From Candidatus Cybelea sp. (lineage in GTDB: Bacteria; Vulcanimicrobiota; Vulcanimicrobiia; Vulcanimicrobiales; Vulcanimicrobiaceae), in assembly GCA_036732685.1 (NCBI GenBank), contig DAINBY010000014.1, positions 2,704-66,703 on the forward strand: a DNA stretch of 64,000 bases, given 5' to 3'. The notes beneath the pieces were generated by a model. That model had not been told where the DNA came from. It did no database searches and saw only the letters and a list, made by a program, of their open reading frames with translations. Positions within the stretch are counted from its first letter, which is position 1. Each line of letters opens with the position of its first letter. Made by a program: the position numbers and the translations under genes. This document shows, piece by piece, positions 9,830-14,998 of the stretch.

Positions 9830-11961
9830 CGGCGGCGTCGGGGCGTCGGTGTCGATTGCGTCGCCAACGGCGACGGCGATGCAGACGGAGATCCAGAGGG
9901 CACGATCGTCGCAGGCGGCGGCACTTCGTCGGGCGGCGACGCGTAGGGTGGGGGCACCGTCGGCGCAACGAGCCCCGCGCCGGCGCCCGCATACTGATTG
10001 GAGCGATAGGCATCGATCGAGTTTCCGCATCCGTACTGCGGCTCGGTGCCCTTCAGATAGTACTCGTAGCCGCCGCGGCCGCAACCGGCAACTTTGGCGA
10101 CCTCCTCGGTGGGAAACGGAAACTCGTGCGGCGGCGTGCCGGCAAGCGCGGCCTTCATGAAGCGCGCCCAAATGCGCGCGGGAACGTTGCCGCCGTACGA
10201 TTCGACCATCGGCGTGTAGTCGTCGTTGCCGATCCAAACCGCAGCGACGAGATCCGGCGTGAACCCGACGAACCAGGCATCGCGAAAACTCGAGGTCGTG
10301 CCGGTCTTTCCGGCGGCGGGCCGGCCGATCACCGCGTTGGGATAGCCAGTACCGCGCGCGATGACGTCCTGCAGCATCGAGGTCATGATGAAGGCGGTCC
10401 CCGCGCTCACCACATCGGTGGCCTGTGGAAATCGATCGTCGAGAATGGTACTCCCCAACGAATCCTTGACGATCCGAAACGGCGTTGGTTCGATGAAGAG
10501 GCCTTGATTCGCCAAGGTCGCATAGCCCGTGGCTTGATCGAGCACGGTAATGCCCGAAGAGCCGAGCGCAAGCGAGAGATTCGCCTCGAGCGGCGACGTC
10601 ACACCCATCCGGTGCGCGTATTCGATGACGCGATCCAGGCCGACGCGCTCGGCAAGCTTGACCGCGACGATGTTGCGCGAGAGCGTGAGTGCTTCGCGCA
10701 GCGTTATCGCGCCCATATAGCTGTTGTCGTCGTCCATCGGCGACCAGTGGGTTCCGTCACCCATCGGATAGCTCACCGCCGTATCGTCGATGATCGTCGA
10801 TGCCGGAATTCCTTGATCGATCGCTGCGGTGTAATCGTAAATCTTGAAGGACGAACCGGGCTGGCGGCGCGCCTGCCACGAGCGATTGAACTGATTACGC
10901 AGCGAGAACCCGTCGCCGCCGACCATCGCCAGAATCTCGCCGGTTGAGGGACGCAATGCGACGAGCGCGGCCTGATGTGCGCCGATCCCCTCCGCTACGG
11001 CTTGGTGCACGCCCCAGGTCACCGCGTCTTGCGCGAGCTGCTGGAGGTGGGCGTCCATCGTCGTATAGACTTGAAGGCCGCCCTGTTCGACGACGTTCGC
11101 GCCGAAAAGCTTTTGGAGCTGTGCGATCGCAAAGGTCGTGAAGTACGGGAAGCGATACCCCTGAAGGCCCTCGGGGCGCTGCGAAATCAGATCGAGCGGG
11201 GCCTCGGAGGCGGCGTTTGCCTCGGCCCGCGTCACGTAACCGCTTTCGACCATGCGATCGAGCACGTGACGCTGCCGGTCCCGGGCCAAATCGAGATTCG
11301 TAAACGGAGAGTAATCCGAAGGAGCGGCCACGATTCCCGCCAGCATCGCCGCTTGCGCGAGCGAGAGCGCGTCGACGTTGCGCCCGAAGTAGGTGTGTGC
11401 GGCAGCGTCGACGCCGTACGCTCCGGCGCCGAGATAGATGATGTTGAGGTAGCGCTCGAGGATCTCGTCTTTAGTGTAGTAGCGCTCGATCTCGATCGCG
11501 AGCAAGGCTTCCTGAATCTTGCGCGACATCGATACCTGATCGTTGAGAAAGAGCCGCCTCGCGAGTTGTTGCGTGATCGTCGAGGCGCCTTGGAACTGCT
11601 GATGCGTCACGTCGGCGAACGCGGCGCGCACGATGCTCTGGAAATCGACGCCGTGATGGCGATAGAAGTTGTGATCCTCGTTGGCTACGAAAGCGTCGCG
11701 GACGAGGGGCGGGATGCCCGAGATCGGCACCCAGACGCGGTTCTCTTTGTAGACCGAGGCGAGCAGCGCTCCGTCGCGTGCGAAAATGCGGGTCGAGCTC
11801 GCCGGTTGGTAATCGGCCATACGGCTGATGTCGGGCAGGTTTCGTCCGTACGTCGCGATTAGGCCCGCGACCGTGCCGATCCCAAAGAGCACGATCATCA
11901 GCAGCGCGACCAGGAGGCCTCGCCAAAAGCCGCCGCCGCGCCCTCGTCTACGCTTTGACAT
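9826..11961 (-). CDS. Class A penicillin-binding protein (bifunctional glycosyltransferase/transpeptidase, PBP1A type)
   Basis: 711 aa. N-terminal TM helix, GT51 motifs (FVANEDHNFYRHHGVD, GASTITQQLAR), a transpeptidase SxxK region (PGSSFKIYDY) and KTGTT. The tail is Pro-rich. Confidence 0.9.
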   Translation of the reverse strand: MSKRRRGRGGGFWRGLLVALLMIVLFGIGTVAGLIATYGRNLPDISRMADYQPASSTRIFARDGALLASVYKENRVWVPISGIPPLVRDAFVANEDHNFYRHHGVDFQSIVRAAFADVTHQQFQGASTITQQLARRLFLNDQVSMSRKIQEALLAIEIERYYTKDEILERYLNIIYLGAGAYGVDAAAHTYFGRNVDALSLAQAAMLAGIVAAPSDYSPFTNLDLARDRQRHVLDRMVESGYVTRAEANAASEAPLDLISQRPEGLQGYRFPYFTTFAIAQLQKLFGANVVEQGGLQVYTTMDAHLQQLAQDAVTWGVHQAVAEGIGAHQAALVALRPSTGEILAMVGGDGFSLRNQFNRSWQARRQPGSSFKIYDYTAAIDQGIPASTIIDDTAVSYPMGDGTHWSPMDDDNSYMGAITLREALTLSRNIVAVKLAERVGLDRVIEYAHRMGVTSPLEANLSLALGSSGITVLDQATGYATLANQGLFIEPTPFRIVKDSLGSTILDDRFPQATDVVSAGTAFIMTSMLQDVIARGTGYPNAVIGRPAAGKTGTTSSFRDAWFVGFTPDLVAAVWIGNDDYTPMVESYGGNVPARIWARFMKAALAGTPPHEFPFPTEEVAKVAGCGRGGYEYYLKGTEPQYGCGNSIDAYRSNQYAGAGAGLVAPTVPPPYASPPDEVPPPATIVPSGSPSASPSPLATQSTPTPRRRR

Positions 11962-12349
11962 TTGCTACCGCGCTGAGCACGCCGTTGACGAAACGTCCGG
12001 AGTCCTCGGTGGAGAATCGTTTCGCGAGCGCCACCGCTTCGTTAATCGCGACCGCCGTGGGCGTCTCGGGGCGGCAGCGAAGTTCGAACGTTGCCATCTC
12101 TAAGAGCAGCCGGTCGATGGTCGGCAAGCGCTCGATGGCCCAGCCATCGAGCAGCGGGCTCACGATCCGATCGGCCTCGGCGGCGTAATCGAGCGTCCCC
12201 ATCGCGAGCTCTTCGACGAATGCCCGCTGCTCGCTCGCCGCTTCTTCTCCGACGATCTCGCGCACCGCATCGCGCGGTTCCCGATCGCCGATAACGACCG
12301 AATACAACACTTGCAAGGCTTGCTCGCGCGCGAGTCGCCGCGAGGTCAT
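11948..12349 (-). CDS. nusB: Transcription antitermination factor NusB
   Basis: 133 aa: [14 protein letters not shown]...[13 protein letters not shown]...[16 protein letters not shown]...SGRFVNGVL, canonical NusB. ATGA overlap with accC. Confidence 0.9.
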
Positions 12350-13727: not shown

Positions 13728-14621
13728 CTACTTCCCTCGCGCTACTAAGAAGAGCGCCTGGCCGTACTCGACCGGCATACCGTCGGCCGTTGCCACCGAG
13801 ACGAGCCTGCCCGGCCCCAAGCTGTGAATCGGCGTGCGAATACCGAGCGCTTCGATATAGCCGAGCTCGCGATCGCCGTCCAGTGCGTCGCCTTCGGCCG
13901 GTACCGGGCGGGTCAAGCGGAAGATGCCGACGAGATCCGCTTTGATCGTGTCGATGCGTTGCGACGCAACCTCGGCCGATCGCGCTTCCATTCCTCGATC
14001 GGGCGTTCGAATCGGCTTTGGAGCCGCAACGAGTTCGATCTCGCCCGCGGCGTCCTCCACCCGAACGGCAACGGCATCGCTTTCGGCCAGAAAGCGCGCG
14101 AGCGCGCGTACGCGTTCGCTTACGAACGGTTGCTCTAGGGGCATCACGTCAACGCTTTCGCGCTCGGCGCGCGCCACCCCCGCGAGCTCCGACGGTCGCA
14201 GCGCGTCGCGTAGCGCCGTGAAGCGATCGTCGATCTCGGCGAGCGGCACCAAAACGAAGGCGCGCTCGCGCAGGTGCGCGTGAGGAACGCGCAGCCCCGC
14301 TTCGTCGATCTCGAGCTCGTCGAAGATCAACAGATCGAGGTCGATCGCGCGCGGACCCCATCGCTCGCGGCGAATCCGGCCCGACTCGCGCTCGATCGCG
14401 AGCAAGCGCTCCAGCAACAAGCGCGGAGTCATCTCCGTTTGGACGAGCGCCACCGCGTTGAGGAACCATGGCTGATCGGTATTTCCCCACGGGGCAGTAC
14501 GGTAGAGCGACGAGCGACGCACCACGCGACCGAGCTCGCGCAGTGACGCGAACGCGCGCTCGACGTTTGCGAAGCGGTCGCCGAGGTTGCTGCCGATTCC
14601 GATGAAGGCCGAGTGCGTCAA
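13728..14621 (-). CDS. folK: HPPK (FolK) fused in frame to a BCCP-like (AccB-homologous) domain lacking the biotinyl-lysine
   Basis: TTG at 14621 overlaps the folB stop. HPPK part: [12 protein letters not shown]...LYRTAPWG...[10 protein letters not shown]...[15 protein letters not shown]. No stop occurs before MPLEQPF.... The remaining roughly 137 aa aligns without gaps to AccB, but the motif reads EALGIRT instead of EAMKMMN. Confidence 0.75.
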
Positions 14622-14998
14622 CTCGCGTCGTATCGCGGATTGGGGCGATCCAGCGTCACGCTCGGCGTTGCGCCGTCGAGAATGCCGGGCTTCGACAGGG
14701 TTATGCGGGCGCGCGCGATGCGGCGATCGGCGAAGACGGCTTCGAGCAGATCGCCCGCCAGGCGTTCGAGGAGTGCATACGACTTCGTAGCGACGATCGT
14801 AACGAGCTCGTCGCGAAGCGCCGAATAATCGAGCGTCTCCGCCAGCTCGTCGGATCGCTGCGCCGCACTGAGATCGATCTCGGCGGTGAGGTCGATCCTG
14901 AGGAGCTGCCGGCGTTCGCGTTCTTGCAGGAGCGCACCGATGCGACCGTAGGCGCGCACGCCGCGCAGCGTTATGGCGTCCAATCGGCGGGCCTCCAT
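14618..14998 (-). CDS. folB: Dihydroneopterin aldolase
   Basis: 126 aa from the ATG at 14998: ITLRGVRAYGRIGALLQERERRQLLRIDL...DYSALRDELV... is the FolB pattern. It lies between folP and folK. Confidence 0.85.
   Translation of the reverse strand: MEARRLDAITLRGVRAYGRIGALLQERERRQLLRIDLTAEIDLSAAQRSDELAETLDYSALRDELVTIVATKSYALLERLAGDLLEAVFADRRIARARITLSKPGILDGATPSVTLDRPNPRYDAS

Follow-up and report, generated by a model that had tools for sequence, protein, structure and literature searches.

Can a gene that occupies the position of accB lose the lysine to which biotin is attached and yet be maintained beside an apparently intact gene for biotin carboxylase? This question is raised by an open reading frame on the minus strand (14621..13728) of a 64,000-nucleotide stretch of DNA from Candidatus Cybelea sp. 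(contig DAINBY010000014.1), referred to below as the window. The frame is open throughout and encodes an HPPK (FolK) domain followed, in the same frame, by a 138-residue part that resembles BCCP, the biotin carboxyl carrier protein, and lies directly upstream of accC in the same orientation. We find that the BCCP-like segment is, as read from its sequence, the positional orthologue of AccB with a canonical site that cannot be biotinylated. The protein is kept under selection throughout an order of soil bacteria, the Baltobacterales of the Eremiobacterota, and we lean towards the view that it serves as a non-catalytic partner of AccC.

The missing biotinyl-lysine

The codons at 13853-13839 read gaa gcg ctc ggt att (E-A-L-G-I) and are followed by an Arg codon. 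The glycine codon ggt at 13844-13842, G101 of the BCCP-like part, sits at the position of the biotinyl-lysine, so that the E-(A/V)-M-K-(M/L) hairpin of AccB and BCCP proteins is replaced by E-A-L-G-I-R. The 138-residue part has only three lysines, K43, K68, and K138, and none of these is near the hairpin or conserved in the family. With no lysine at the site, biotinylation by BirA, and hence the shuttling of CO2 between the biotin carboxylase (BC) and the carboxyltransferase (CT), is predicted not to occur.

The divergence from known carriers is large. The TIGR00531 (AccB) model gives 27.6 bits, below its curated cut-off of 115 bits. A Pfam scan of the BCCP-like protein did not find the PF00364 biotinyl domain and returned only PF13533 at 13 bits, and the best match by phmmer among the PDB sequences, a pyruvate carboxylase, has only E = 0.13. 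When alignment A1, which contains 43 homologue sequences, was compared with canonical AccBs by HHalign, the probability was 99.7%, with E = 3e-25 over 134 columns. The match extends from end to end and takes in the N-terminal helix-hairpin domain, in which residues 5-39 stand opposite residues 1-35 of E. coli AccB, and G101 stands opposite E. coli K122. There is a gap of 5 residues, seen in the alignment only, at about residues 95-99 of E. coli AccB, which we take to be the "thumb" of BCCPs of the acetyl-CoA carboxylase (ACC) type. The AlphaFold model has pLDDT > 93 for residues 61-138, and Foldseek matches the BCCP domains 1bdo, 9a87 (Arabidopsis BCCP1), 2ejf, and 4hr7, with TM scores of 0.8-0.89 and deviations of 1.4-3 Å. 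The BCCP-like segment is thus a very diverged full-length AccB, and the homology is secure. The parts of the protein are as follows, all on the minus strand.

14142..14144, minus strand: ATG that opens the BCCP-like part
14028..14123, minus strand: N-terminal domain (helix 8-21 and hairpin 26-39), equivalent to the AccB N-terminal domain, from AlphaFold secondary structure and HHalign
13965..14027, minus strand: linker, residues 40-60, with pLDDT 47-52 and variable in alignment A1
13731..13964, minus strand: beta sandwich like that of biotinyl domains, residues 61-138, without a biotinyl-lysine, from pLDDT, Foldseek, and HHalign
13836..13853, minus strand: hairpin E98-A-L-G101-I-R103, from the DNA and the alignment to E. 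coli EAMKMM
13728..13738, minus strand: last codons R-G-K-stop, including GAGGG, a Shine-Dalgarno-like site for accC
13728..13730, minus strand: stop codon TAG

The protein therefore shares with canonical AccB, as represented by the E. coli protein and TIGR00531, its position upstream of accC, the fold, and the three-part architecture of N-terminal domain, linker, and biotinyl beta sandwich. It differs in having Gly for Lys122, Leu and Ile for the flanking Met residues, a 5-residue alignment gap in the presumed thumb region, and a low TIGR00531 score. A BCCP fold without a biotinylation site is also what characterises the BADC proteins of plants.

By contrast with its neighbour, AccC retains all of the catalytic motifs, including ECRINAEDP, and scores 511-560 bits against solved biotin carboxylases. 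The closest are 9eb7, 8hz5, and the E. coli BC. Scores of 546 bits (8hz5) and 490 bits (8hz4) were obtained for what, from names and lengths, are probably the Chloroflexus BC2 and BC1 structures, respectively, of PMC11077971. Judged by its sequence, AccC is a canonical and strongly conserved biotin carboxylase that looks functional.

Several of these points had been noticed in a sequence-only reading of the DNA made beforehand. The E-A-L-G-I at the invariant motif is exactly as it was reported, and its assertion that canonical biotinylation is impossible for want of a nearby lysine agrees with the distant and unconserved positions of K43, K68, and K138. Its placing of the gene where accB belongs is borne out, since accC begins 2 nt past the BCCP-like stop, nusB comes next, and the synteny recurs in relatives. 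The statement that accC is intact likewise holds. The match to BCCP which it described was right as to homology, but not in being "without gaps", as the BLASTP alignment with the E. coli protein contains 9 gaps, at 26% identity.

Conservation of the Gly hairpin and history of the site

Is the glycine peculiar to the window? We collected 73 close homologues, from organisms named Candidatus Eremiobacteraeota, Baltobacteraceae, and Tumulicola, and in these E98, A99, L100, G101, R103, P105, S108, and about 30 more positions are nearly invariant. R103, P105, and S108 are new invariant residues that surround the hairpin, and the C-terminal R-G is conserved throughout the family. The motif EALG[I/M]R is nearly invariant in more than 100 relatives, and when a library of 1.8 billion representatives was searched with the profile, a family reading EALGIR or ESLGIR headed the 150 best matches. 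In a scan of GTDB species genomes, [IV][ED]ALG[IM]R was found in 30 of the 30 Eremiobacterota (Vulcanimicrobiota) species recovered, the nearest being Candidatus Cybelea sp. (77%) and then a metagenome-assembled genome (MAG) (75%). Aligning orthologues at the lysine position, as the sequence-only reading had proposed, thus gives Gly across the order.

The gene order folB-folK-X-accC-nusB-PBP-xseAB, in which X is the BCCP-like gene and PBP a penicillin-binding protein gene, is kept in the related loci L001, L003, L005, and L006, and accC follows the BCCP-like gene in all untruncated Eremiobacterota loci. Between relatives, the BCCP-like gene has omega values of 0.26-0.59 with amino acid identities of 41-59%, while accC has omega values of 0.11-0.17 with identities of 74-86%; these dN/dS ratios are approximate, as dS is saturated and some pairs are undefined. 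The BCCP-like gene evolves about three times faster than accC, for which omega is about 0.12, yet it is still constrained. It is a real gene, under purifying selection and with an invariant Gly across Baltobacterales. One locus of the typical Eremiobacterota type, with EALGIR and accC, is in a contig labelled Candidatus Acidiferrales (L030, DATJRM010000058.1), probably through a binning or labelling error.

The next-best group of the profile search reads EAL-K-[LV]-[RKQ]..P and belongs to Candidatus Eremiobacteraceae (Eremiobacterales). These genes occupy the equivalent place, with folB/folK on one side and accC-nusB on the other, and are thus orthologues of the BCCP-like protein. The residue at the biotin position in the Eremiobacterales orthologues is Lys in 102 of 121 and Arg in 19 of 121, and a low-GC Vulcanimicrobiota MAG with the same synteny (L052) has Asn (VETVNILNEV). 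Both orders already show replacement of the flanking Met residues and what we take to be a shortened thumb region. The presence of Lys, Arg, Gly, or Asn according to lineage means either that the attachment site could be dispensed with from an early stage of the phylum onwards or that it was lost several times. As the nearest relatives are Lys-bearing Eremiobacterales AccBs at the same locus, the lysine appears to have been lost within Eremiobacterota, independently of plants. For the same reason common descent with plant BADC was rejected, without a direct comparison with BADC sequences. The Eremiobacterales orthologues (L007, L008, P0235-P0344) also carry a C-terminal extension of about 30-60 residues, absent from the clade of the window, which terminates in a conserved EPPR[IL] (or PPTTN/PPPGI).

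The FolK junction and the start of accC

The minus-strand operon of the window has the order uppP, moaC, moaB, folC, folP, folB, folK, BCCP-like segment, accC, nusB, class-A PBP, xseAB. The genes and junction nearest to the BCCP-like segment are listed here.

14618..14998, minus strand: folB (dihydroneopterin aldolase), PF02152 at 1.5e-23, in the same operon upstream of folK
14229..14621, minus strand: catalytic part of folK (HPPK), PF01288 at 2e-39 (residues 6-131) and TIGR01498 at 139 bits
14142..14228, minus strand: C-terminal tail of FolK and in-frame junction, with no stop codon
12346..13725, minus strand: accC (biotin carboxylase), with three Pfam domains and a probable ATC start at 13725-13723
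11948..12349, minus strand: nusB, PF01029 at 1.3e-30, with its start overlapping the accC stop (ATGA)

The start codon of folK is TTG at 14621-14619, which overlaps the TGA of folB as TTGA. The TIGR01498 score is well above the curated cut-off of 54 bits, and together with the gene order folP-folB-folK it identifies the first domain as FolK.

As the sequence-only reading had stated, the frame runs from FolK into the BCCP-like domain without a stop. In L001, FolK ends with ...VRLE and a TAG, which is followed by a 45-nt spacer and the BCCP-like gene in the same frame, whereas the window lacks the folK stop and has a spacer of 18 nt. An in-frame junction is present in 14 of the 30 species (L009-L017, L019, L020, L023, L027, and L032), and these include all of the nearest relatives. 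In L009-L017 there is similarity at the protein level across the junction (ELAGVAR[AV]ERESV..M). Full-length proteins of 293-324 residues from several sources, and truncated ones from JGI, also carry the fusion. Because the same junction and the similarity across it recur in relatives, the fusion is genuine and inherited, and the earlier caveat that a single indel might have created it no longer applies. L002 and L004 were not counted as evidence for the fusion, as their assemblies are riddled with frameshifts. The question whether orthologues share the fusion is answered in the affirmative for these 14 species but not throughout: in other lineages a stop and a 45-nt spacer, or a GAF-HD gene of 1.8 kb on the opposite strand, separates the two parts. 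This last gene, an insertion of one subclade, encodes a GAF and HD-type (HD_5) protein of about 600 residues between folK and the BCCP-like gene, at 7929-9839 in L003, 8130-9899 in L005, and 8116-9918 in L006.

No fused species has lost the internal Met with which the BCCP-like part begins, and unfused forms keep it too. Some 10 nt before this ATG there is a GAAAGC (14145-14165 in the window; also L001 and other loci), which is likewise kept whether the genes are fused or not. This conservation points to internal initiation, and the free 138-residue protein is probably still made from the conserved ATG. GAAAGC, when in frame, encodes "ES"; it agrees poorly with the standard Shine-Dalgarno sequence and may be a signal of another kind. 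We suggest that the folK stop codon was lost in a subclade in which both genes were already in frame, which would give FolK a C-terminal domain extension, and that the fusion which resulted is simply tolerated. In L008 (8703-10004; Eremiobacteraceae MAG GCA_035710745.1), FolK is fused instead to a SAM-dependent methyltransferase domain, giving a protein of 433 residues, so C-terminal fusions of FolK seem to be labile in the phylum.

The start codon of accC also seems unusual. It probably lies just before F-[KR]-K-V-L-I-A-N-R-G-E and would be ATC or ATT in 23 of 39 loci, that is, in the window and in 22 of 38 related loci (L001, L004-L006, L009-L011, L013-L015, L019, L020, L024-L026, L028, L030, L031, L034-L036, and L038), with ATG, GTG, or TTG at the same codon elsewhere. 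In L024, L026, L028, and L034, an in-frame stop is present 1-2 codons upstream and there is no canonical start ahead of ANRGE, so initiation of accC at AUU or AUC seems unavoidable in these loci. Gene callers choose a TTG five codons downstream (13710 in the window). The conserved Arg-Gly codons at the C-terminal end of the BCCP-like gene supply the Shine-Dalgarno-like GAGG of accC. A run resembling A-AAA-AAG at the accC start was considered as a frameshift signal and dropped, since it is not conserved in relatives. In L002, L004, L015, L024, and L028, which are MAG contigs derived from long reads, accC and its neighbours are split by frameshifts, and these loci are unfit for arguments that depend on the frame.

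Possible role of the lysine-less protein

What could an AccB without its lysine do? AccC is a normal biotin carboxylase and still needs a biotinylated substrate, which the adjacent homologue cannot provide, and a carrier encoded elsewhere is therefore the most economical reading. We consider it somewhat better than an even chance that the protein is a partner of AccC which cannot be biotinylated, analogous to the BADC of plants, and that the real carrier is encoded at another place in the genome. Lys has been replaced by Gly and the flanking Met residues by Leu and Ile, with retention of the three-part AccB architecture. As gene linkage suggests, the Gly-hairpin protein would still bind AccC as a non-catalytic subunit, acting in assembly, tethering, or regulation. 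The carboxyl-carrying biotin would be on another protein; a CT-BCCP subunit is one candidate, and a BC-BCCP fusion like Chloroflexus BC1 or those of actinobacteria is another. Were accC initiated weakly from AUC or AUU, the Lys-less protein would greatly outnumber AccC, and such an excess fits a scaffold better than a competitive inhibitor.

Several points weigh against this proposal. We found no second biotinyl domain in the six frames of the 64-kb window by regular expression or phmmer. In 748 kb of Eremiobacterota loci, an HMM of canonical AccB detected the syntenic gene alone, although these loci are mostly the same region and tell us little of what the genome holds elsewhere. Among canonical AMKM proteins, those nearest to the family profile are from Chromatiaceae, Chloroflexota, Liquorilactobacillus, and others, and not from Eremiobacterota. 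It is gene linkage only, with translational coupling, that speaks for binding to AccC, and the predicted excess of the protein would be equally compatible with a role unrelated to AccC. Finally, plant BADC is a paralogue beside true BCCPs, whereas in these bacteria it is the orthologue that has been altered, so that the analogy could be a superficial one.

It is possible, though we think it unlikely, that the protein has been neofunctionalised for a role outside AccC catalysis, either autoregulation of the operon through its N-terminal domain or service as a platform or decoy for PII-type or other regulators, and that its position merely records the history of the operon. E. coli AccB autoregulates its operon through the N-terminal domain. 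The threefold faster evolution relative to accC would fit a new function, as would the invariant R103, P105, and S108 round the hairpin and the gain of a conserved EPPR[IL] tail in the sister order. In addition, accC is not present within 10 kb of the Lys-less homologue of Dictyobacter (L049) or of some of those in Armatimonadota and Chloroflexota, which are described below. However, accC is strictly adjacent in every Eremiobacterota locus, with its ribosome-binding site inside the last codons of the BCCP-like gene, and the whole architecture of AccB, including the N-terminal domain, has been retained. A bifunctional protein, in which the fusion to FolK couples folate synthesis to carboxylase or lipid metabolism, is improbable. 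In its favour, the fusion is present in 14 of 30 species, among them all of the nearest relatives, and full-length fused proteins of about 300 residues come from several sources, but a stop, a spacer, or an opposite-strand gene is found at the junction in about half of the order, the linker varies in length and sequence, the initiator Met and GAAAGC are kept in fused and unfused forms alike, and the FolK of L008 is joined to a methyltransferase instead. Thus, the earlier idea that the fusion ties the protein to the pterin operon finds no support.

There might be no other carrier at all, in which case AccC and the Gly-hairpin protein would form an unconventional carboxylase that uses no covalently bound biotin, but instead non-covalent or free biotin or another acceptor. 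We regard this as very improbable. It would account for the absence of any other biotinyl domain from the window and the 748 kb of related loci, for a hairpin so strongly constrained that it might enter an active site, and for the strong conservation of AccC. But the share of any one genome that was inspected is less than a few percent, and the variation of the site residue among Lys, Arg, Gly, and Asn argues against a specific new chemistry. Furthermore, all known biotin carboxylases work efficiently with protein-bound biotin but very poorly with free biotin. The prospect that accB is a decaying pseudogene, as the sequence-only reading had allowed, or that a miscalled Lys codon or a fusion-making indel has produced an artefact of sequencing or assembly, is refuted by the comparative data. 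The very weak scores against curated BCCP models and the many frameshifts in the related long-read assemblies L002 and L004 could be taken as signs of it. Nevertheless, the same Gly codon position and in-frame junction occur in dozens of independent assemblies (JGI, ENA, NCBI, and Logan), EALGIR hardly varies and neither do about 35 other positions, the omega values are below 1, and the model of the folded domain is confident.

The comparison with BADC, which the sequence-only reading had offered, stays the best functional reading, and it would apply by analogy. BADC proteins are Lys-less, BCCP-like subunits of the plant enzyme, which are not biotinylated and bind BC and BCCP (PMC11926652). 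Such subunits, BADC1-3 in Arabidopsis, are non-catalytic partners of BC and BCCP that lack the biotinyl-lysine motif, and have been described as unique to plants (PMC11926652). Our full-text literature searches found no description of a bacterial Lys-less AccB orthologue or BADC, and biotin enzymes are not listed in the Eremiobacterota papers or in the supplements on Vulcanimicrobium alpinum. If the analogy is correct, the idea of BADC may have arisen independently in bacteria, by conversion of the syntenic orthologue rather than by addition of a paralogue beside true BCCPs.

Two other systems offer partial parallels. In Chloroflexus aurantiacus, ACC runs on a fused BC-BCCP (BC1), while BC2 and a separate BCCP have no assigned role (PMC11077971). 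Chloroflexus is thus another Terrabacteria lineage in which a fused BC-BCCP exists beside a stand-alone BC and a separate BCCP, but that BCCP keeps EAMKM. The epsilon "glue" subunits of actinobacterial acyl-CoA carboxylases have been cited as a precedent for non-catalytic subunits (PMC11926652). They resemble the role proposed here in being small, non-catalytic proteins that assemble or activate a biotin carboxylase complex. Epsilon subunits are not known to be related to BCCP in sequence or fold, and it is to the carboxyltransferase beta subunit that they bind.

In one bacterial order the only syntenic accB has become a BCCP-like protein that cannot be biotinylated at the canonical site and is kept under selection beside an intact biotin carboxylase, which contrasts with the plant-only picture. 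Should this protein prove to scaffold or regulate AccC, subunits of a pseudo-carrier kind would represent a general solution, reached by convergence, to the control of multi-subunit carboxylases. Annotation of accB as present from a homology match alone would then risk counting a non-functional carrier in this phylum. The proposal could be tested in bacteria, as the order has a cultured member in V. alpinum. If instead there were no other carrier, the rule that biotin carboxylases need protein-bound biotin would be challenged, and the Lys-less proteins found in Eremiobacterota, Armatimonadota, and Chloroflexota might be the sign of a so far unrecognised way for biotin carboxylases to operate.

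Similar Lys-less AccB-like genes occur in at least two other phyla. They were found in Armatimonadota, with Ala, Thr, or Arg at the site (L040, L047, and L062), in Ktedonobacteria, including the cultured Dictyobacter aurantiacus (L049), with Asn, and in Limnocylindria (L050 and L076) and other Chloroflexota (L055), with Gly. The accC gene comes directly after that of L047 and about 1.5 kb downstream in L050 and L076. The Lys-less proteins of these other Terrabacteria phyla (also P0124 and P0139) have 134-178 residues, with stop-to-stop open reading frames of up to about 420 residues.

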